Part shown: piece by piece, positions 5,609-21,331 of the stretch | Layout of the letters: every line of letters starts with the position of its first letter | Numbering within the stretch: position 1 is the stretch's first letter | The notes under the pieces: generated by a model | The model's database searches: none | Seen by the model: only the letters and a program-made list of their open reading frames with translations | Told to the model about the DNA's origin: nothing | Position numbers and translations under genes: made by a program | Assembly: GCF_046119375.1 (NCBI RefSeq) | Contig: NW_027362767.1 | Location: 317,068,001-317,132,000, forward strand | DNA: 64,000 nucleotides | Direction: 5' to 3' | Source: Phyllobates terribilis | Lineage: Eukaryota

Positions 5609-6033
5609 TGTAACATACCTGGCGGCGTCCTTGCATGGTGGTCCATCTCCCACTGTGCAAGAGCGCGCACTTGATCTCCTGTCCAGAATGTCTCTCTGGC
5701 TTCCCTCCTTGCTGTCTGTTTGTCTGTTTTGGCTGCATAGGGCGACGCCCGCTGAACTTCCTGTTTCTTGTACCTGCTGCGGACACGCCCCTGTTGCACC
5801 TTCAGCCTATTGCTGTCCATCTTTGGGTATTTATACCACCTTCTTCCTCAAGATGGCGCCTGAGCATTGTTTCTTGTCAGTTGGCTTTTTGTCTCTGACA
5901 TGCCAGGTCCTATCCTGTTTTCCTGCCTGTTTTCCTGCCTGTTTTCCAGTTCTGTGTCTGAACTGTGGTCTGTTCTTGTGAACACGCTTCTTGCCTGTTC
6001 TTTCGCCTTCTAGGGGCCGTATTCCTAGATCTG

Positions 6034-6350
6034 CCTGTCTGTGCCTTGCGGTATCTGTTCCCGTCTGAACAGAGTCCTGTTTGTGTCTCTGCCTTTCGGT
6101 ATCTGTTCCCGTCTGAACAGAGTCCTGTTTGTGTCTCTGCCTTGCGGTATCTGTTCCCGTCTGAACAGAGTCCTGTTTGTGTCCCTGCCTTGCGGTATCT
6201 GTTCCCGTCTGAACAGAGTCCTGTTTGTGTCCCTGCCTTGTGGTATCTGTTCCCGTCTGAACAGAGTCCTGTTTGTGTTCCTGCCTTGCGGTATCTGTTC
6301 CCGTCTGAACAGAGTCCTGTTTGTGTTCCTGCCTTGCTGTCTCTGTTCCC
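6034..6350. repeat. 48-bp tandem repeat x6 inside the solo LTR
   Basis: Unit tgccttgcggtatctgttcccgtctgaacagagtcctgtttgtgtc(t/c)c; 16-aa periodicity in the ORF track. Confidence 0.9.
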
Positions 6351-6589
6351 GTTCCTCTGTTCCCTGTTGTCTGTGCCTCGTTTCTACTTTAACCTTGTCT
6401 CCCTTTTCCCTCTATGTCTGTTTTCTGCGTCTTTCTGCAGAGTCTGAACTCGCTCCTAAATTCCTTCTCGTCGTCTCTGTACCTCTGTTGTGAATTTAGT
6501 GTACGCTCGCTACTTCTATGTAAGTACTGTGCGTGCTTCTGGTTCTGCCTTTCCTTCTCCGTCTGTTCTTTGTGAACAGAGTCCTATCC

Positions 6590-6900
6590 CCTTGCCTTGT
6601 TTACCGCTCTGCGGTGTCCGCTCTGCTCCTGCTTAGCTTGCCGCTCTTGCGGTTTCTGCTCTGCTCCTGCCTTGTTTACCGCTCTGCGGTGTCCGCTCTG
6701 CTCCTGCTTAGCTTGCCGCTCTTGCGGTTTCTGCTCTGCTCCTGCCTTGTTTACCGCTCTGCGGTGTCCACTCTGCTCCTGCTTAGCTTGCCGCTCTTGC
6801 GGTTTCTGCTCTGCTCCTGCCTTGTTTACCGCTCTGCGGTGTCCGCTCTGCTCCTGCTTAGCTTGCCACTCTTGCGGTTTTCACTCTGCTCTTGCCTTGC
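6590..6900. repeat. 75-bp tandem repeat x4 inside the solo LTR
   Basis: ttaccgctct recurs at 6601 and 6676 with 75-bp spacing; 25-aa periodicity in the ORF track. Confidence 0.9.
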
Positions 6901-7486
6901 TTGCCGCTCCTGCGGTTTCTGCTCTGCTCTTATCTTGCTTACTGCTTCTGCGGTTTCCGCCCTGCCCTGCTTCTGCCCGCTGCTCCGGCAGTCCTGTCCT
7001 GCCCTGCTTGTGCTCGCTGCTCCTGCTTCCCCGTCCTGCTCTGTTCTTGCCCACCGCTTCGGGCATTCCCTCTCTGCTGTGGTTGTCTACCGCATCTGCG
7101 GTTCTGTGACCCAGTCTGTACTGGGTCTTAACCTCTCTGTGCTCCAGCCCGTCCTTTCGGCCAGTACCTCCCTGCCTGCATACTTGCCTGTATCCACCCA
7201 TCTGCATACCTGCCGTGTTTGCTTACATCCACCAGTCTGTGCCAGCCTAACCTGCCTGTTCCAGTAATCCCAGCATGGGTCAACCCCCGTGTCCGGAGTT
7301 TGACCTGGAGTAGCACCTGGTCCCTCTGCCCAGTTTCTCCCTGGTGCACTGGCGTCGTATGCCGTCGTGCCACCTTGGTCGGATCGGCCAGATACTTAGT
7401 CACGCCCCTCCAGGCACTCTCCGGTCCATGGTCCAGTGGAACCACAACACCCGCACACGCCAGTCAGTCCGGGCGTGTGCATAACA

Positions 7487-7833: not shown

Positions 7834-7846
7834 GGCCTGTGCAAAC

Positions 7847-8541
7847 TGTTACGGATCCGGGTGGTGGAACCTCTGTGCTGAGATGCAAGAAGGGACCAGA
7901 GGTGCGTAACTAAGTGCCAACTCGGACTGACCCTGGCCACACGACGGCTTAGTCGACTCCGTGAACCAAGGAGGGACCTGGCAGGTGAACCAGGTGCCAC
8001 TCTGGGACTGACCTTCTGTGAGAGCAGGTGACTCCCACGGGTCAGGTGGCAGAGCCTGACAGGTACAGCGGATGAGTACGGCAGGTAGCCTGACAGGTGA
8101 TCCAGGTAGGTAAGTAGGCGGGCACAGCAGGTAACATGACAGGTGATCCGGGTAGGCAAGCTGGTGGGCACGACAGGTAGACAGGCTGGCGGGCGCGGCT
8201 GATAGGCAGGCGGGCACGGCTGATAGACTGGCGGGCACTGGAACCTGAGGGCTGAGGAGAGTGTTAGCACACAAACAACAACCTTGAACAGGCACCTCCA
8301 TTTTGGAGGAGGTGCTTTAAATAGGAGTGGTCCTCCGGCCATTGGCCGGGGACTCTTTAGGACGACGTGCGCGGCCCCTTTAAGAGGGAGGGAGCGCGCG
8401 CGCGCCCTAAGCACAGTACCTGGGAAGCTGCGCGCGGTGCGCGCAACAGCAGCAGGGGACCTGGAGGACGCCAGACCGGGACCGCGGCAGTGAGGGGTTC
8501 GGCGTCTCTGCCCAGCAGGAGGTAGAGACGCCAACACTACA
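7847..8541 (-). repeat. 5' LTR of element A (695 bp)
   Basis: Direct repeat of 1104-1897; CCAAT and TATTTAA boxes on the minus strand; followed by the PBS and gag ATG. Confidence 0.93.
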
Positions 8542-9686: not shown

Positions 9687-10008
9687 GAATCTTGGTGGCT
9701 TGTACTGTCGTGCATGAGTCCTGTCAGTCTTTCAATGACATACCCTGTTAAATCCTGCTCAGGGTTTGACAGTCCATTATACCCTGAGTCATTACAAGAC
9801 CTCAGGTTACGATAGCAAATATTGTCATCCGCAATAGATGCCGAATCCACGATAGACAGACGCATCTAAGGGGTTAATCAGCCCAATCAGTTCCAAAATC
9901 CATTAGGACCGATGCTGCAGAGTGTCAGTCGACATCTCTGTCGGGTAGCGCTGTACACCTTTCCCTCAGCACTGTGATAAAGTAGCACTGAGGAATAAGG
10001 CCGCTTAA

Positions 10009-10488
10009 ATGGAATCTGTCACCCCCTGGCACTCCTCTGACCTCTAATATGGGCATACAGGTGATAGAAATGTGAATCTATACCTACCTGTATGCCTCAT
10101 ATTAGAGGTTTTGTTGCTGTGAAATATCTTTTCATTCCTACAAGTTTCTGATGCTTGCAGGTGACTGGAGGAAATTCCCACCTCCTGTGTGAATTACGTT
10201 TCCCCCCTCCCCTGTATGTCACAGTGCCTGGATTTAGCTGTTGCAACTGCACATCACAGGACACTGTGACATAGAGGGGAGGGGGGAAACATTGTAATTA
10301 CCGCAGGAGGTGGGGATTTCTTCCCATCCCCGGGACTGGAACACATCAGAAACTTGTAGAAATAAAAAGACATTTCACAGCAACAAGACCTCTAATATGA
10401 GGCATACAGGTAGGTATAGATTCACATTTCTATCACCTGTATGCCCATATTAGAGGTCAGATAAGTCCCATGGGGTGACAGACTCCCT
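10009..10488. mobile_element. TTAA-flanked palindromic MITE (T2/Kolobok-like)
   Basis: TTAA on both sides; long inverted arms; same family at 50166-50715. Confidence 0.85.
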
Positions 10489-10565
10489 TTAATGACCACT
10501 GTGAAAAAGGCGTATCAGCTCCATTAAGGGGTCAATGTTTTACTTCCAAGGTATAAAACAATGTA

Positions 10566-11871
10566 CAGGTGCTTCTCACAAAATTAGAATATCATCAAAA
10601 AGTTAATTTATTTCAGTTCTTCAATACAAAAAGTGAAACTCATATTATATAGAGTCATTACAAACAGAGTGATCTATTTCAAGTGTTTATTTCTGTTAAT
10701 GTTGATGATTATGGGTTACAGCCAATGAAAACACAAAAGTCATTATCTCAGTAAATTAGAATAATTAACAAAAAGCACCTGCAAAGGCTTCCATAAGCGC
10801 TTAATAAGGTCCCTTAGTCTGTTTCAGTAGGCTCCACAATCATGGGGAAGACTGCTGACTTGACAGATGTCCAGAAGGCAGCCATTGACACACTCCACAA
10901 GGAGGGTAAGTCATTAAAGGTCATTGCTAAAGAAGCTGGCTGTTCACAGAGTGCTGTATCCAAGCATATTAATGGTAAGTTGAGTGCAAGGAAAAAGTGT
11001 GGTAGAAAAAGGTGCACAAGCAACCGGGATAACTGCAGCCTTGAAAGGATTGTTAAGAAAAGGCCATTCAAAAATTTGGGGAAGATTCACAAGGAGTGGA
11101 CTGCTGCTGGAGTCATTGCTTCAAGAGCCACCACACATAGACTTATCCAGGGCTTCAAGTGTCACATTTCTTGTGTCAAGCCACTCATGACCAATAGACG
11201 ACGCCAGAAGTGTCTTACTTGGGCCAAGAAGAAAAAGATCTGGACTGTTGCTCAGAGGTCCAAGGTGCTGTGTTCTGAGATGAAAGTAAATTTTGCATTT
11301 AATTTGGAAATCAAGGTCCCAGAGTCTGGAGGAAGAGTGGAGAGGCCACAATCCAAGCTGCTTGAGGTCTAGTATGACGTTTCCACAATCAGTGATGGTT
11401 TGGGAAGCCATGTCATCTGCTGGTGTAGGTCCACTGTGTTCCATCAAGACCAAAGTCAGCGAAGCCGTCTACCAGAAAATTTTAGAACACTTCATGCTTC
11501 CCATAACACCTCAGCAGTGCCACAGGCTGATCGCCTCCATGCCATGCCGCATTGATGCAGTAATTGATGCAAAAGGAGCCCCGACCAAGTATTGAGGGCA
11601 TTTACTGAACATACATCTCAGTAGGCCACATTTCGGATTTTAAAAACATTTTTCAAGCTTTTGTTATAAAGTATTCTAATTTACTGAGATAATGACTTTT
11701 GTGTTTTCATTGTCTGTAAGCTATAATCATCAACATTAACAGAAATAAACACTTGAAATAGATCACTCTGTTTGTAATGACTTTATATAATATATGAGTT
11801 TCACTTTTTGTACTGAAGAACTGAAATAAATTAACTTTTTGATGATATTCTAATTTTGTTAGAAGCAACTG
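10566..11871 (+). mobile_element. Tc1/mariner transposon, internally deleted
   Basis: TA TSD; ~200+ bp TIRs starting CAGGTG; transposase remnant MGKTADLT...(HTH)...VMVWEAMSSAG...KGAPTKY* lacking the second D/E region. Confidence 0.92.
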
Positions 11872-12788
11872 TACATTGGTCAAAGACCTGTCTTGTAATA
11901 AACAAAATGCAAGTGTGTGCCCATGAACTTGACAAATTTGTATTAGTCCTAATAAATTGCTAAAAGCAGAGATCTTGAAATTGTAAAGAATTGATACAGA
12001 ACATAAATTGTAAAATTGTTTAACTTAATTATAAAATGAATAACATATATTTGCTGAAAGTGATATACACCTTATAAGGACCTGACAGCTGACTCATGCT
12101 GCCAGAACCAAAGGCAGCATGAATCAGAGTTACTCAGGCGTAAATGTGTAAATGTATGTTTCCATTGAACAACACAGTATCTCAGAGTAAAACATCTCTC
12201 GCTGAAATGATAAAGCCAGTGTCTGATCCATCTTCTCCATGGTTCAGACGGCATGTATAAGCCTTCATGTTCCCTATAAGTAAAAACCCATTAATAAAGC
12301 ATCAATTTTGACATGATTTTGTAAAAACTACAGCCCAAACAGTGACATGAGTTCGATGTGTGCGTAAGTTTTAATATTGTGATGACAGTTGCTTTCCTTT
12401 AAGTAGGAAAATAATGATGTACATTATATAGACAGAAGTACCGTATATCACATCCGATTCTAAATCCATAGACATTAACATGAAGTTGGTCTCCCTGTTA
12501 GGCCCCCTTCACACGTCTGGATATTTCCGGTACTGGAAAAACCAGTACCGGAGATATCCGTGTCCCGTATCAGGATCACACGTACCAGCACTTGGGAATC
12601 AGCATTACAGTTCGCGCTGTTCCCAAGCACCGGGTACTGAGCGCTGCCCTCATCATTGTCCCCTGCTTGCACTGCGATCAGTGCCAGCAGAGGACAATGT
12701 CGAGAGTAGTATTCTGCTCCCTCTGTGTTCTGGTGTAAAAATAAGAATAAAATAAAAAAATTCTTATACTCACCTGTCCCTTGCTGTA

Positions 12789-13845
12789 TGTAGTGCCGGC
12801 GTCCCTGCCCTCTGCTAGGCAGGGACGCTGTTCCCCTCACCGCTCTGCTCCGTGCCCGGCGTCCCTCTCCCGCTCTGCTGGCAGCACGCGCTCCTTCCCG
12901 GCCACTGTGCTTAGGGCGCGCGCGCGCGCTCTCCCTCCCTCTTAAAGGGGCCGCGCGCGCCGTCCTAAGGAGTCCCCGGCCAATGGCCGGAGGACTTTAC
13001 CATATATAAGGCACCTCCTCCAAAATGGAGGTGCCCGAGCAATGTTGTTTGCACCTGTGTCTCACCTGTGCTTCAGCCCTCAGGTCCCGTTGCCAGTTAC
13101 CTGCCAGTTACCTGCCAGATTCCTGCCTGATTACTTGCTACCTGCCTGCTAGTCTGAGGTCCGACGGTCTGCCTTACTAATCCTGTCAGTCTGTCTAAGG
13201 ACCAGCCTGCCCGCTCACCTGGGAGCGCACATCAGCTACTTGCCTGTGGTCCGACGGTCTGCCTTCCAACTCCTGTCAGTCTGTCTATGGACCAGCTTGC
13301 CCGCTCACCTGGGAGCGCACATCTGCTACCTGCCTGCTAGCCTACCTGGAGGCTCCGTCGTCACGTGCTGTGACCACCTGTCTATCCAGTGACTCCTGCC
13401 CGCTCACCTGGGAGCGCTCATCTGCTACCTGTCTGCTTGCCTACCCGGAGGCTCTGCCGTCACGTGCTGTGACCACCCGCCTGTCCAGAGACTTCTGCCC
13501 GCTCACCTGGGAGCGCTCATCTGTCGCCTGTCCGCTGGTCTTCCTGGAGGCTCCGCCGTCACATGCTGTGACCACCCGTTCATCCAGAGACTCTCGCCTG
13601 CTCACCTGGGAGCTCACGTCTATCTTCAGCCGCCACAGGTCGTACCAACCCTATACCTAGAGACTGCCCCGGTCACTTGCCGTGACCTCCAGCCCGTTCA
13701 CTCAGAGACTGTCCCGTTCACTCAGAGACTGTCCCGTTCACCTGCTGAGACTTCCAGCCCGTCTTCCCTGGTCGCCACCCGCTCCCTTACAAGGACCGCC
13801 CCCTTGTATAGAAGCTCAGAGGTTCCGCCTCCCAGACCCGTTACA
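12789..13845 (+). repeat. 5' LTR of element B (1057 bp)
   Basis: Direct repeat of 18060-19124; CCAAT 12980-12984; TATATAA 13003-13009. Confidence 0.96.
12980..13042 (+). promoter_or_regulatory. LTR core promoter (CCAAT, TATA, predicted TSS ~13033)
   Basis: CCAAT and TATA seen directly. TSS inferred from the 30-nt spacing and from complementarity to the PBS. Confidence 0.7.
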
Positions 13846-13847
13846 GT

Positions 13848-13857
13848 TTGCTCGGGC
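13848..13857 (+). promoter_or_regulatory. Self-priming PBS of element B
   Basis: TTGCTCGGGC, 2 nt after the LTR, is the exact reverse complement of GCCCGAGCAA (13033-13042). No TGG-type tRNA PBS. Confidence 0.8.
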
Positions 13858-13858
13858 C

Positions 13859-14809
13859 ATGGAACCCGGTGGCACCCAAGCTCCCTCGCTCTCGGACCTG
13901 TGTCATGAACTGTCCCGTCAAAGGTCCCAACAGGAGTCCATTCTGGGTCACCTGCGGAATGTCAATACTCGCCTGGACACTCTGACTGCTCCACCAGCAA
14001 CCTCCGCCAGTGCCATGTCTCGCAATCCGGCAGCTCCACTGCCCACTAATACCATGGTATCTTACCCCGGACCCCGGCTTTCTGCACCTCCTCGCTTCGG
14101 AGGCGACTCCGCCCAGGCTCGGGGCTTCATAAATCAGTGCACCCTGCACTTTGAACTATTATCTCACCAGTTTAACTCCGACCGGGCCAAAATTGCATTC
14201 ATCATGTCCCATCTCACCGGGGAGGCCCTGGCCTGGCTAAATCCTCTATGGGAGAGAGGAGACCCCCTGGTATCCAACTTGCCTGCTTTTCTCACGGCTT
14301 TCCGGAAAGTCTTCGACGAACCCGGACGGAAGACCTCATCCGCATCATCTCTGCTACGCCTCCGTCAGGAAAGTCTCACCGTGGGCCAATATGCCATACG
14401 GTTCCGTACCCTTGCCTCGGAGCTGGCCTGGGATAACGACGCTCTGGTTTCCGTCTTCTGGGAGGGTCTGTCCGGCCGTATTAAAGATGAGCTTGCCGGT
14501 CGGGACATTCCTACCACTCTCGATGATTTAATAACTCTTGCCACCCGGATTGACCTACGGTTCCAGGAGCGTGCCAGAGAGGTCACCCGTGAGAGGAGAT
14601 TGCCACGTCTAGCTCCTACTTTTCAGAAACCCGTCACTCCTTCTGTCTCTTACCAGGTACACTCTCCTGAGCCTATGCAGGTCGACCAGACCAAGATGGT
14701 CAAGACCCGTCAGGACTTACGCTGTGCCGAGGGGACCTGCTTCTACTGTGGCAGTAAGGAGCACCGGATCCGTGCCTGCCCGGAGAGGTCGGGAAACGCC
14801 TGTGTCTAG
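13859..14809 (+). CDS. gag: Gag (316 aa), sushi/PEG10-like capsid plus CCHC knuckle
   Basis: gccATGG start; PPRFGGD..RGFINQCTLHF; CFYCGSKEHRIRAC. Confidence 0.93.
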   Translation: MEPGGTQAPSLSDLCHELSRQRSQQESILGHLRNVNTRLDTLTAPPATSASAMSRNPAAPLPTNTMVSYPGPRLSAPPRFGGDSAQARGFINQCTLHFELLSHQFNSDRAKIAFIMSHLTGEALAWLNPLWERGDPLVSNLPAFLTAFRKVFDEPGRKTSSASSLLRLRQESLTVGQYAIRFRTLASELAWDNDALVSVFWEGLSGRIKDELAGRDIPTTLDDLITLATRIDLRFQERAREVTRERRLPRLAPTFQKPVTPSVSYQVHSPEPMQVDQTKMVKTRQDLRCAEGTCFYCGSKEHRIRACPERSGNACV

Positions 14810-14852
14810 GTTCGCTCAGAGAGGTCCACCTAGACAAGAATAAATCCTCTCC
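14791..14852 (+). promoter_or_regulatory. -1 ribosomal frameshift signal (G GGA AAC plus H-type pseudoknot)
   Basis: Heptamer in the correct gag phase; 5-nt spacer; stem TGTCTAGGT/ACCTAGACA; loop GAGAGG pairs with CCTCTC at 14846-14851. Confidence 0.8.
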
Positions 14853-17800
14853 ATCCCTGCTGTTGTCAGTTTCAATCGTCTATGGGGAGAACCGTTATTT
14901 CGAACTAGCCCAACTTGACTCTGGAGCAGCCGGGAATCTTATCTCACAGTCCCTGGTAGAGAAATACCGCATCCCCACCAAACCTCTGGCTGTACCCTTG
15001 TCTGTTGCTGCCGTGGATGGGGGGCTCTTACCACGCCCCATCCAACTCATCACCGAATCCATTACTCTGCAGGTGGGAATGCTGCATTCTGAAAGTATCT
15101 CCTTCCATGTTCTGCCTGGACTCTCTCACGCCCTCCTGCTAGGTCTACCTTGGCTCCAGAGACATGCACCCGTTCTTGACTGGCAGACCGGTGAAGTCCT
15201 TCGCTGGGGACAGGGCTGCCATAAGACCTGTCTGGTTCCCGTCCATCCCGTCCGTCCTTCTCCTACCCCAGCTAATCTACCTGGACTTCCGATCCCTTAT
15301 TGGTCTTATGCTGATGTCTTTAATAAAAAGGAAGCAGAGACACTACCCCCTCATAGACCATACGACTGCCCTATCGACTTGTTACCTGGTACTTCTCCTC
15401 CCCGTGGGCGTATTTATCCATTATCCGCTGCTGAGACCCGCTCGATGTCCGAATATATTGAGGAGAATCTGGCCAGGGGATTCATCCGGAAAACTACCTC
15501 CCCGGCGGGAGCAGGCTTCTTTTTCGTCAAAAAGAAGGACGGCTCTCTCCGTCCCTGTATAGACTATAGAGGCCTTAACCAGATCACGGTGAAGAATAAG
15601 TACCCCCTTCCGCTCATTCCGGAGTTATTTGATCGTCTGAAGGGGGCTAGAATCTTCACCAAACTAGACCTCCGTGGGGCGTACAACCTGGTTCGTATCC
15701 GTCAGGGGGATGAATGGAAGACGGCATTCAACACCCGGGACGGCCACTATGAATATCTGGTAATGCCCTTTGGCCTCTGTAACGCTCCTGCCGTCTTTCA
15801 AGAGTTGGTCAATGACATCTTCCGGGACCTTCTCTACTCCTGCGTAGTGGTGTACCTGGACGACATCTTGGTCTTCTCTCCGGATCTCCAGACTCACCGG
15901 AGGGACGTTCGTCAAGTCCTGCTCAGGCTCAGGCAGAACCATCTCTACGCTAAATATGAGAAGTGCCTCTTTGAGCAGACCTCGCTTCCGTTTCTGGGCT
16001 ACATTATCTCTCAGACCGGCCTACAAATGGATCCTGAGAAACTGTCTGCCATCGAGAAATGGCCCCGACCGGAGGGGTTGAAGGCCATTCAGCGATTCCT
16101 GGGCTTCGCCAACTACTACCGCCTCTTCATACCACACTTCTCTTCCCGGACTGCCCCAATTTCCGCGCTCACCCGTAAGGGTACTAATCCCAAAGAGTGG
16201 CCGCCCGAAGCAGAGGAGGCCTTTCTTTCCCTAAAACAGGCCTTCTCTTCCGCCCCGGTGCTGCATCGCCCGGACGGCAACAAGCAGTTCTTCCTGGAAG
16301 TTGACGCCTCCTCCTCTGGAGCCGGAGCGGTACTTACTCAAAAATCATCTTCCGGGAGAATGGTAACTTGTGGCTTCTTCTCCAAACTCTTCTCCTCTTC
16401 TGAGCGCAACTATTCCATAGGAGACCGAGAGTTATTGGCCATCAAGCTGGCGTTGGAGGAGTGGCGTTACCTACTCGAGGGGGCTCTTCATCCGGTAATA
16501 ATTTACACTGACCACAAGAACTTGGCTTACCTCCAGCATGCCCAGAGACTTAACCCGCGTCAAGCCCGGTGGTCCTTGTTTTTTGCTCGCTTTGATTTTG
16601 TTCTTCATTTTCGCCCGGCTGACAAAAACGTCAAAGCAGACGCCTTGTCCCGATCCTTTCTGGTGTCCGATCTCGAGGAAGAACCTAAACATATCATCGA
16701 TCCCGCCAGAGTAATGCAGGTGGCTCCCGTGAGTCTAAATCGTCTCCCTCCCGGTAAGACGTTTGTTTCAGTACCTGATCGGGAGAAGATCCTACACTGG
16801 GGCCATTCGTCTAAGCTAGCTGGCCACGCCGGTCAGAAAAAGACCCTCCAGCTTATTGCCCGGCACTATTGGTGGCCTACCCTGCACAAGGACGTAATAG
16901 ACTTTGTTTCTGCCTGTGTGTCCTGCGCCCGCAACAAAGTCCCGAGACATCTGCCAGCCGGACGCCTCCTTCCGCTTCCTGTGCCTGCTGCCCCCTGGCA
17001 GCATATTGCTATGGACTTCATAACTGATCTCCCCGTCTCTGTCGGTTGTACGGTCATTTGGGTGGTCGCTGACCGCTTTTCCAAGATGGCTCACTTTATT
17101 CCCCTGCCAGGCCTCCCGTCTGCACCCGAGCTGGCTAAAGACTTTAACCGCCATATCTTCCGTCTTCATGGCCTGCCCCTCCACATCGTGTCGGATCGTG
17201 GGGTACAGTTCACCTCACGTTTCTGGAGAGCCACTTGTAAACTACTAGACGTCACCCTGGACTTCTCCTCCGCTTACCACCCACAGTCCAATGGTCAAGT
17301 GGAGCGGATCAATCAGAACCTGACCAGTTACCTCCGGCACTTCGTTAATGCCCACCATTCTGACTGGGTGGATCTCCTACCATGGGCCGAGTTCTCTTAT
17401 AATAATCACGAGAGCGAATCCTCCTCCAAATCCCCGTTTTTTGTAGTTTTCGGTCAGCATCCTCGGATTCCTTTTCCTGTCTCCACCTCTGTGGACAACC
17501 CGGCTGCGGAATCTCTCGTTAGCAAATTTTCCTCCATATGGGAGAGTACCCGGTCCGCACTCCTTCTGTCATCCGAGCGTATGAAAAGACACGCTGACAA
17601 AAAACGCCTGGATCCTCCACAATTTCGTCCAGGAGATAAGGTCTGGCTCTCATCTAAATATGTTCGACTCAAGATACCTTCTTACAAGTTAGGGCCTCGG
17701 TTCATCGGTCCTCTGGAGGTCATCAGTCAGATCAACCCGGTGGCCTATAAATTGAAACTCCCGGCTAACTTACGGATCCCTAACTCCTTCCATGTATCTC

Positions 17801-18216
17801 TCCTCAAACCCGTGGTGCTTAACTCTTTTTCCAAGTCTACAGGTACGCCTCCTGCTCCGGTTTCCGCTGAGGACGAGTTTGAGGTAGAGAACATTCTTGC
17901 TACCAAAAGGGTAAGAGGAAAGACCTTTTTTCTAGTAGATTGGAAGGGGTTTGGTCCTGAGGAGAGAACGTGGGAGCCCCGGGAGAACATCCATGCCCCT
18001 CTCATCCTTGCTAAATTTCTGTCTGGCCTAAAAAAGGGGGGGCCTAAAGGGGGGGGTACTGTAGTGCCGGCGTCCCTGCCCTCTGCTAGGCAGGGACGCT
18101 GTTCCCCTCACCGCTCTGCTCCGTGCCCGGCGTCCCTCTCCCGCTCTGCTGGCAGCGCGCGCTCCTTCCCGGCCACTGTGCTTAGGGTGCGCGCGCGCGT
18201 TCTCCCTCCCTCTTAA
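14791..18216 (+). CDS. pol: Pol (protease-RT-RNase H-integrase-chromodomain), probably made as Gag-Pol by -1 frameshift
   Basis: Frame open from 14758, in -1 relative to gag. LDSGAAGN, VYLDDIL, EVDAS, H..H/C..C, MDFITDL, SDRGVQF, QVERINQ, GPRFIGP, chromodomain FEVENIL..VDWKGF..TWEP. Confidence 0.94.
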   Translation, partial: GKRLCLGSLREVHLDKNKSSPSLLLSVSIVYGENRYFELAQLDSGAAGNLISQSLVEKYRIPTKPLAVPLSVAAVDGGLLPRPIQLITESITLQVGMLHSESISFHVLPGLSHALLLGLPWLQRHAPVLDWQTGEVLRWGQGCHKTCLVPVHPVRPSPTPANLPGLPIPYWSYADVFNKKEAETLPPHRPYDCPIDLLPGTSPPRGRIYPLSAAETRSMSEYIEENLARGFIRKTTSPAGAGFFFVKKKDGSLRPCIDYRGLNQITVKNKYPLPLIPELFDRLKGARIFTKLDLRGAYNLVRIRQGDEWKTAFNTRDGHYEYLVMPFGLCNAPAVFQELVNDIFRDLLYSCVVVYLDDILVFSPDLQTHRRDVRQVLLRLRQNHLYAKYEKCLFEQTSLPFLGYIISQTGLQMDPEKLSAIEKWPRPEGLKAIQRFLGFANYYRLFIPHFSSRTAPISALTRKGTNPKEWPPEAEEAFLSLKQAFSSAPVLHRPDGNKQFFLEVDASSSGAGAVLTQKSSSGRMVTCGFFSKLFSSSERNYSIGDRELLAIKLALEEWRYLLEGALHPVIIYTDHKNLAYLQHAQRLNPRQARWSLFFARFDFVLHFRPADKNVKADALSRSFLVSDLEEEPKHIIDPARVMQVAPVSLNRLPPGKTFVSVPDREKILHWGHSSKLAGHAGQKKTLQLIARHYWWPTLHKDVIDFVSACVSCARNKVPRHLPAGRLLPLPVPAAPWQHIAMDFITDLPVSVGCTVIWVVADRFSKMAHFIPLPGLPSAPELAKDFNRHIFRLHGLPLHIVSDRGVQFTSRFWRATCKLLDVTLDFSSAYHPQSNGQVERINQNLTSYLRHFVNAHHSDWVDLLPWAEFSYNNHESESSSKSPFFVVFGQHPRIPFPVSTSVDNPAAESLVSKFSSIWESTRSALLLSSERMKRHADKKRLDPPQFRPGDKVWLSSKYVRLKIPSYKLGPRFIGPLEVISQINPVAYKLKLPANLRIPNSFHVSLLKPVVLNSFSKSTGTPPAPVSAEDEFEVENILATKRVRGKTFFLVDWKGFGPEERTWEPRENIHAPLILAKFLSGLKKGGPKGGGTVVPASLPSARQGRCSPHRSAPCPASLSRSAGSARSFPATVLRVRARVLPPS

Positions 18217-19124
18217 AGGGGCCGCGCGCGCCGTCCTAAGGAGTCCCCGGCCAATGGCCGGAGGACTTTACCATATATAAGGCACCTCCTCCAAAATGGA
18301 GGTGCCCGAGCAATGTTGTTTGCACCTGTGTCTCACCTGTGCTTCAGCCCTCAGGTCCCGTTGCCAGTTACCTGCCAGTTACCTGCCAGATTCCTGCCTG
18401 ATTACTTGCTACCTGCCTGCTAGTCTGAGGTCCGACGGTCTGCCTTACTAATCCTGTCAGTCTGTCTAAGGACCAGCCTGCCCGCTCACCTGGGAGCGCA
18501 CATCAGCTACCTGCCTGCTTGCCTGTGGTCCGACGGTCTGCCTTCCAACTCCTGTCAGTCTGTCTATGGACCAGCTTGCCTGCTCACCTGGGAGCGCACA
18601 TCTGCTACCTGCCTGCTAGCCTACCTGGAGGCTCCGTCGTCACGTGCTGTGACCACCTGTCTGTCCAGTGACTCCTGCCCGCTCACCTGGGAGCGCTCAT
18701 CTGCTACCTGTCTGCTTGCCTACCCGGAGGCTCTGCCGTCACGTGCTGTGACCACCCGCCTGTCCAGAGACTTCTGCCCGCTCACCTGGGAGCGCTCATC
18801 TGTCGCCTGTCCGCTGGTCTTCCTGGAGGCTCCGCCGTCACATGCTGTGACCACCCGTTCATCCAGAGACTCTCGCCTGCTCACCTGGGAGCTCATGTCT
18901 ATCTTCAGCCGCCACAGGTCGTACCAACCCTATACCTAGAGACTGCCCCGGTCACTTGCCGTGACCTCCAGCCCGTTCACTCAGAGACTGTCCCGTTCAC
19001 TCAGAGACTGTCCCGTTCACCTGCTGAGACTTCCAGCCCGTCTTCCCTGGTCGCCACCCGCTCCCTTACAAGGACCGCCCCCTTGTATAGTAGCTCAGAG
19101 GTTCCGCCTCCCAGACCCGTTACA
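18060..19124 (+). repeat. 3' LTR of element B (1065 bp)
   Basis: Direct repeat of 12789-13845; preceded by the PPT. Confidence 0.96.
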
Positions 19125-21331
19125 CTGTAATCCATCTGATCGCTCATGCTGAGGAGCCAGGGAGAATGACTCACTCCAGCGAGTGGTGTCCTGTCACTCA
19201 CCAAGCAAGCACAGAGCAGGGGCCCGCTTGCTGCAGGAGTCATTCTCCCAGACTCCTCTGCGTGAGCGGTCAGGTGGATTACAGCGGGGGACACCTTCAG
19301 ACAGGTGAGTATAAGGATTTTTTTATTATAATCTTATTTTTACACCAGGACACAGCAGAATACTACTCTCAACATTGTCCCTTGATTGTGCTGATCACAG
19401 TGCCGGTAGGGGACAATGATGTCAGATGCCTGCAGCACCCGGGACTTGGGAACAGCGCTAACTCTATCGCTGATTTCCAGACTCCAGTATGATGAGACAG
19501 GGATGTCACCCATGTGTCATCAGTGTGAACGTGTACAGGAACTTTTGGGCCCAAGCTGAGAGAAAAAAAACAGACATGTCAGCGTGTTTTGCCCACGGAC
19601 ACACAGTCCGTGGAAACACACCAACATGTGCACAGACCCATTCATTTGAATGGATCCACGCGTGTCAGTGTCTTCAGTACGTGTGGAAATGGAAACCACA
19701 CATACTCAAAACATTGACGACTGAAAGAGCCCTTAAATAAATAAAATAAATTGCAGCTAAAACAGCTCCCAACCACAATCCCAGTTGTTGTGCACAACTC
19801 ATCTGCTTTGACCATTCACCAGGGTTGGACTGGGACAAGTCTATGCAGCCCACCACCACCTACATGGGTGTCTCTATTAATAATAATAATTTTTATTTAT
19901 ATAGCACCAACATATTCCGCAGCACTTTACAATTAAGCGGGGACATGTACAAACAATAAATTCAATACAAGGTGAGACAGTTTAAACAGTTACATCAGGA
20001 GTGAGGTCCCTGCTCGCAAGCTTACATTCTACAATGAAATGGGGGGACACAATAGGTGGAAAGTGCTTGTTATTTCAGGTCTGGCAATCATAATAAGTCG
20101 GGATTATCATATAAAGCTGTATGATCCAGTCATCAGCCTGTATGTTCAAGTGCAATACTCAATTACCAAGTGCAGTTAGAGACAGATGAACAGTAGGGAG
20201 CAGATTCTGAATAGTATTTAGGAGGGAAAAGGGGAAAGTTAGTTTACTGGGTATTTGAGGTGGTAGGCTTGTTTAAAGAGATGGGTTTTTAAAGCGCGCA
20301 TCAATCGGATCGTCTGGGGTAGAGCATTCCAGAGAACTGGCGCAGCACGAGAGAAGTCTTGGAGACGGAGGTGCGAGGTTCGGATTATGGGGGATGTTAG
20401 TCTTAGGTCATTTGTGAAATGGAGGGCACGTGTAGGACGATAGACTGAGATGAGAGAGGAGATATAAGGTGGTGCAGAACTGTGGAGAGCTTTGTGGGTG
20501 AGAGCAATGAGTTTATATTGGACCCTGTAGCGAATGGGTAACCAGTGTAATGACTGGCACAAGGTGGAGGCATCGGTGAAGCGGCTGGACAGAAATACGA
20601 CCCTGGCTGCCGCATTCAGGACAGATTGGACAGGGGAAATTTTGGTAAGAGGGAGACCGATCAGAAGAGAGTTGCAGTAGTCCAGACGAGAGTGAATAAG
20701 AGCAACAGTAAGCGTTTTAGCAGTTTCAAAAGTGAAAAAAGATCAGATTCTGGAGATGTTTTTAAGATGCAGGTGACAAGAGCGAGTGAGTGATCGGATA
20801 CACGGAGTAAAGGAAAGGTTAGTGTTGAATATGACCCCAAGGCAGTGGGCGTGCTGCTTGGGAGTTATGGTTGAACCCTCCAAGGTAATTTCGATGTTAG
20901 GTAGAGTTAGGTTAGTAGAGGGGGGAAACACAAGAAGTTCAGTTTTGGAGAGATTCAGTTTAAGATAGAGGGAGGACATGATGTTAGACACAGCAGACAG
21001 ACAATCCTTGGTATTTTGTATTAGGGTAGGGTGATGTCAGGGGAAGAAGTGTATAATTGGGTGTCGTCAGCATAGAGATGATACTGGAACCCAAATCTGC
21101 TGATTGTTTGTCCAATAGGGGCAGTGTATAGAGAGAAGAGGAGGGGGCCTAGGACTAAGCCCTGCGGAACCCCGATAGTAAGGGGATGAGGAGGGGAAGA
21201 GGAGCTGGCAAAAGATACAGTGAAGGAACGGTCAGAGAGGTAGGAGGAGAACCAGGAGAGAACGGTTTCCTTGAGGCCTATAGAGCGGAGCATAGTGAGG
21301 AGGAGCTGGTGATCCACAGTGTCAAATGCTG

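Follow-up and report, generated by a model that had tools for sequence, protein, structure and literature searches.

Primer-binding sites of poison frog chromoviruses are complementary to, and change together with, the predicted 5' end of their own RNA

What primes reverse transcription in a retrotransposon whose primer-binding site (PBS) does not resemble the target of a tRNA? Two neighbouring elements, A and B, raise this question in the window analysed here, a stretch of 64,000 nt from the genome of Phyllobates terribilis (GCF_046119375.1, contig NW_027362767.1, positions 317,068,001 to 317,132,000 of the forward strand; coordinates below are counted within it). Our comparison of these elements with their relatives indicates that A and B very probably start reverse transcription from the first ten bases predicted for their own RNA and not from a tRNA.

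Both A and B are full Ty3/gypsy chromovirus retrotransposon insertions. B lies on the plus strand at 12789-19124 and A on the minus strand at 8541-1105; each has LTRs with TG..CA ends, a 5-bp target duplication (CTGTA around B, CCAGG around A) and the pol order PR-RT-RH-IN expected of chromoviruses. The 5' LTR of B (12789-13845, plus strand, 1057 bp, TGT...ACA), delimited by alignment of the LTR pair and by the target duplication, differs from the 3' LTR (18060-19124, plus strand) by 7 substitutions in 1057 aligned bases, and the 5' and 3' LTRs of A (7848-8541 and 1105-1897, both on the minus strand) differ by 49 in 689. The gag frame of B (13859-14809, plus strand, 316 aa) is open, matches Retrotrans_gag, Ty3_capsid and DUF4939, and has PEG10 as its best solved relative (E 2e-7). 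Its pol (14758-18216, plus strand) is likewise open, lies in the -1 frame and encodes protease, RT, RNase H, integrase, SH3 and chromodomain; this domain set, together with the C-terminal position of the chromodomain (PF00385, pol residues 1041-1087, E 4e-11; A carries one as well), places B among the Ty3/gypsy chromoviruses. The heptamer GGGAAAC at 14791 is a likely candidate for the gag/pol frameshift site, and we take it to be the motif used by sushi elements and PEG10.

Several other structural features deserve mention. The pol frame of B is free of stops up to the 3' LTR and extends 156 bases into it, past a polypurine tract with a short spacer (18047-18059, plus strand). Neither AATAAA nor a common variant of it was found in the B LTR (12789-13845), so R and U5 of B were not placed; a signal of this type is present close to the LTR end in a different lineage. 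The gag of A is disrupted by a repeat-rich insert of 1.9 kb (5609-7486, minus strand), likely a solo LTR from another family since it has TGT...ACA ends and a CACCT duplication. Between A and B sits a transposase frame (10818-11372, within 10003-11900), which we take from its translation to be Tc1-like, and inverted repeats of 126 nt enclose B (12593-19479).

The proposed primer of B is the 10-mer at 13033-13042 on the plus strand, the predicted first ten nucleotides of the RNA, with a pyrimidine-G step at -1/+1. It is the exact reverse complement of the PBS at 13848-13857 (plus strand), which is not tRNA-like, and the PBS of A (7835-7844, minus strand) is in the same way an exact complement of the primer copy at 1645-1654. 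All four 10-mers lie where the sequence-only reading had put them. That reading was also right to place the B primer 30 nt after a TATA-like box, since the first T of TATATAAG (13003-13010, plus strand) is at 13003. The 2-nt spacer that it had described between LTR end and PBS in both elements (GT, 13846-13847, plus strand, in B) is real, because the LTR ends are set by the 5-bp target duplications. The mismatch it had reported at 8287 is present in the 5' LTR primer site of A (8284-8293) and is likely the result of decay after insertion, as the 3' LTR copy of A is intact. Only the start of gag needs correction: it was said to follow the PBS directly, and a single C intervenes, with the ATG of B at 13859. 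The order LTR end ACA, spacer GT, PBS, one C and gag ATG is common to A and B. Within the window, the two LTRs of B (13033 and, as the 3' copy, 18304-18313) are the sole places with the B primer 10-mer, apart from its complement at the PBS, and this complement arose in 3 of 5000 LTR sequences shuffled by dinucleotide. It should be noted that an 8-bp inverted repeat (13011-13034, plus strand), common to the A/B clade, runs from the TATA box to the primer and covers the first two primer bases; it is missing in distant lineages.

The sequence-only reading had asked for many copies to be aligned. Related elements were gathered with gag and integrase queries and with the junction pattern, the latter contributing 20 stretches, most of them chosen for variant PBSs. 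From 82 stretches we dropped 28 without an LTR pair around the RT match and 7 without TG/CA ends; among the 47 with LTR pair, TG/CA ends and RT match, 14 were without an exact duplication or TG start, and the remaining 33, each with an exact 5-bp target duplication, were kept. Because of these duplications, the LTR ends of the 33 elements are defined independently of the PBS. In every one of them the bases following the LTR have a perfect complement of 8-11 nt in the LTR (10 nt in 17 elements, 9 in 13, 8 in two and 11 in one), about 30 nt after a TATA-like box, and the PBS starts 2 nt from the LTR end in 26 elements, 1 nt in six and 3 nt in one. Internal control windows reached 10 nt in 0 of 330 cases and 9 nt in 14 of 330, so that the 9-mers are supported by their position and not by their length. 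One lineage can be read in two ways, as a primer of 10 nt with a spacer of 1 nt or as a primer of 9 nt with a spacer of 2 nt; in another the primer is unambiguously 9 nt long.

Covariation thus extends far beyond the two families on which it had been proposed. We found 13 distinct primer/PBS pairs, elements seen from the 5' side only included, in lineages whose RT-RNase H matches that of B at about 56-96%. All 11 primer types examined begin on a G after a pyrimidine and have their AT-richest 8-mer beginning at -30 to -36. It is mainly this constant geometry with changing letters that leads us to infer that the 10-mer is the start of the RNA. Contigs from four runs, aligned to 12789-13135, gave no accumulation of starts, which contigs could not reveal in any case. 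The loop of ~810 nt, to which the sequence-only reading had drawn attention, measures 813 nt in B and is nothing special, as primer and PBS are 198-1061 nt apart among relatives. Near-copies inflate all counts of elements, junctions and rows given here and below.

Within the A/B clade, the history of individual pairs can be followed. Once repeated contexts and those in which no promoter was found had been removed, 73 of the 99 junction matches collected for this purpose remained. At primer position 6, the base and its partner are A:T in 49 of them, T:A in 23 and G:T in one, and neither A:A nor T:T was seen among the 73. Position 4, which lies in a CpG, is C:G in 53, T:A in 11 and something else in nine, eight of these being mismatches or wobbles (T:G, C:A, A:A or A:G) and one C:C. 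On a gag tree of 79 rows the B type lies around the base, with a bootstrap that is not fully settled. The change from A:T to T:A maps once, to a branch of 22 rows (100/100) with one long-branch row outside it, and the change from C:G to T:A falls on a branch of 12 rows nested within the T:A branch (100/100). The double covariation proposed between A and B consists of two successive single compensated changes, and a single double mutation was rejected in view of the intermediate type, which has the first change alone and is still extant.

A third change, to C:G, is seen in a small subfamily. Rare PBSs that have C or G as the partner base number 28 in the genome, and in the 23 such copies with a promoter found the 5' LTR compensates in four and does not in 19; a fifth copy is compensated by its 3' LTR. 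On a tree from which four long or gappy rows were excluded, four of the five compensated copies share one supported branch. Independent compensation copy by copy is not established by this, the C:G copies being mostly one clade. It appears that the A/B clade records three successive compensated steps, each probably a single event, while the uncompensated rare PBSs (19/23) and the private variants look like decay after insertion.

Could the 10-mer be supplied in trans, by the 5' end of another element RNA packaged alongside or by short capped LTR transcripts? Sequence cannot separate this from priming in cis, the loop is of considerable and variable length, and in the naked leader the duplex is in many cases unfavoured: its mean pairing probability is at most 0.03 in six of 13 leaders (0.03 in B) and at least 0.76 in six, and forcing it costs 11-17 kcal/mol in two of 12. 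Nested folding, however, cannot represent the pseudoknot of a 'pretzel' layout, since the U5/leader stem crosses the primer duplex; three duplexes arranged in this way are needed by Tf1, according to the available passages of the papers on it (PMC7175516, PMC4600332, PMC10085805, PMC5341516, PMC11042837). The primer duplex is nonetheless part of the minimum-energy fold in six of 12 leaders, as it is for the B leader with ten added bases, and the U5/leader duplex is within the best 1% of LTR windows in seven of 14 elements, with sequences that differ among them (the duplex between post-primer bases and U5 end reaches this level in three of 14). Strong U5/leader stems that enclose the PBS in several lineages fit the folded layout of Tf1, and we regard priming in trans as unlikely. 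In the four A/B-clade elements, neither of the flanking pretzel duplexes stands out. The extra stem that had been cited for A and B, between GGTTCC in U5 (13821-13826, plus strand) and GGAACC, is indeed present and complementary; being near-invariant across the clade it gives no covariation, its duplex energy is equalled by 14-60% of other LTR windows in four A/B-clade elements, and we rejected it as evidence because it is invariant and not above background.

The primer might also be a host tRNA half or fragment, the LTR match being a by-product. Priming by half-tRNAs is known in some Ty1/copia lineages, as stated in a passage of PMC6317226, and our host comparison covers tRNA-Lys(TTT), the type of all eight loci checked among 63 matches of a tRNA search. 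To this tRNA the longest PBS match is 6 nt. Moreover, the 13 different PBSs each track the 10-mer of their own LTR, and the absence of a TGG tRNA site claimed for A and B holds throughout, as none of the 13 PBS types begins with TGG and the 3' end of a mature tRNA therefore cannot pair; a tRNA fragment is thus a highly improbable primer. We find it just as hard to credit that the pairing serves another RNA role, such as control of gag translation, packaging or dimerisation, with priming by some unknown route. Such a role would suit A and B, in which the PBS ends one base ahead of the gag ATG, but in other lineages gag is far downstream and the pairing keeps its distance of 2 nt to the LTR end, the very position that a primer must occupy.

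If A and B do prime themselves, the process can be envisaged largely by analogy with Tf1. Transcription would start at or beside 13033, as the position of this base suggests, and the 5' end of the RNA would fold back across R-U5 (813 nt in B) to pair with the PBS, probably aided by the zinc knuckle of Gag and by the flanking stems. RNase H, whose domain is present in B and whose activity is predicted, would cleave after base 10 as in Tf1; RT would elongate the released 3' end across the 2-nt spacer and on into U5, and integrase would afterwards trim the two extra bases. As the primer would be copied into the plus strand, which is also the case in Tf1, primer changes could pass to the daughter PBS. 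Passages on Tf1 report that about half of its cDNA keeps a primer-templated DNA copy of the PBS (PMC7175516, PMC4600332, PMC10085805, PMC5341516, PMC11042837). The frog data fit such primer-to-PBS copying and also fit selection for pairing.

A more far-reaching possibility, which we put forward tentatively and consider somewhat doubtful, is that each replication cycle renews the PBS from the self-primer, the pair changing as a unit through a single mismatched generation. If this is true, primer and PBS would be free to drift, with 13 types in one genome as a result, and a family with more than 21,000 LTR-PBS junctions would be independent of host tRNA and of silencing by tRNA fragments. The genome would then hold a stepwise fossil record of vertebrate self-priming, in which RNA starts are predicted to the base.

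The A/B family is young and very abundant. At least 150 gag matches were listed, all 99-100% identical to B, and 21,406 places in the genome match the LTR-end/PBS/ATG pattern, against 0 for a reversed control. Among the matches listed, all proteins with names are from frogs, fishes, fungi or algae. Those of poison frogs come closest (98% over RT-RNase H), those of other frogs and of fishes follow, and the fungal and algal ones are more distant; RT relatives in frogs and fishes match at 60-98%. On a tree built without Tf1, sushi-ichi and plant-clade outgroups, RTs of Xenopus and fishes are interspersed among those of the frog lineages. Identical gag matches occur in pairs about 5 kb apart on C1 (98.66 Mb) and C7 (349.53 Mb), and these may be tandem elements with a shared LTR, similar to those that the passages on Tf1 ascribe to integrase-independent insertion. 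The best 150 PF03732 matches are all on small contigs, and the 30 of these loci that were read have a plant-type gag, presumably Athila/Ogre-like, two of them with a TGG tRNA-type PBS. This points to plant DNA as a contaminant among the unplaced sequences of the assembly, and the 30 loci were excluded from the covariation counts.

How much of this is new? The sequence-only reading had cited self-priming in Tf1 and its proposal for sushi-type elements, and both are in print: in the available parts of the papers, self-priming is demonstrated in Tf1 and, after Butler et al. 2001, figures as a trait that is implicated in, and common to, Tf1/sushi elements of hosts ranging from fungi to vertebrates (PMC6317226, PMC4600332, PMC10085805). 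The inference of a self-priming system in a frog is supported; its novelty was overstated. Stepwise compensation on a tree was not found in the passages on Tf1/sushi elements, and Butler et al. 2001 may show frog examples. Titles and abstract beginnings gave no amphibian test of self-priming and no covariation analysis, most subscription papers lying outside the search, and the parts available of PMC4340606, PMC3601003, PMC7472051 and PMC6278860 contain nothing on frog self-priming. As far as these sources go, the mechanism and its presence in the Tf1/sushi group are already published, and what is new are the frog families and an unusually full comparative support. Compensated changes that can be placed on a tree, within a family that is young and has 21,406 junction matches, strongly support by comparison a vertebrate case that the passages so far treat as implicated or inferred. 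The overall picture of retroelement biology is unchanged by them. They also yield an exact and cheap prediction, namely capped 5' ends at the G of the primer and a 10-nt RNA on strong-stop cDNA.

Close parallels to the frog elements exist in yeast. As far as the available passages describe them, Tf1 and Tf2 of Schizosaccharomyces pombe and Tj1 of S. japonicus are also Ty3/gypsy chromoviruses whose PBS pairs with the RNA 5' end and that have no tRNA site, and the U5/leader stems of several frog lineages resemble those of the three-duplex Tf1 pretzel. In contrast, the primer has 9-10 nt in frog elements and 11 in Tf1. The PBS of Tf1 abuts the LTR, whereas a spacer of 2 nt separates the two in frog elements; unlike in Tf1, frog loops reach about 1 kb, and gag and pol of B are in separate frames. 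The mechanism has been shown by experiment in yeast, according to the same passages; the evidence on the frog elements comes from sequence. Self-priming has also been predicted from PBS/LTR complementarity in plant Tcn1-clade chromoviruses and TAR copia elements, that is, in other hosts and lineages, as mentioned in a passage of PMC6317226. Also close are the vertebrate Tf1/sushi elements (sushi-ichi, the GyDB V-clade), likewise vertebrate chromoviruses and, in the passages available, with self-priming inferred for the group; PEG10 is the nearest solved structure to the frog gag. Compared with them, the poison-frog-type families have primer sequences of their own.
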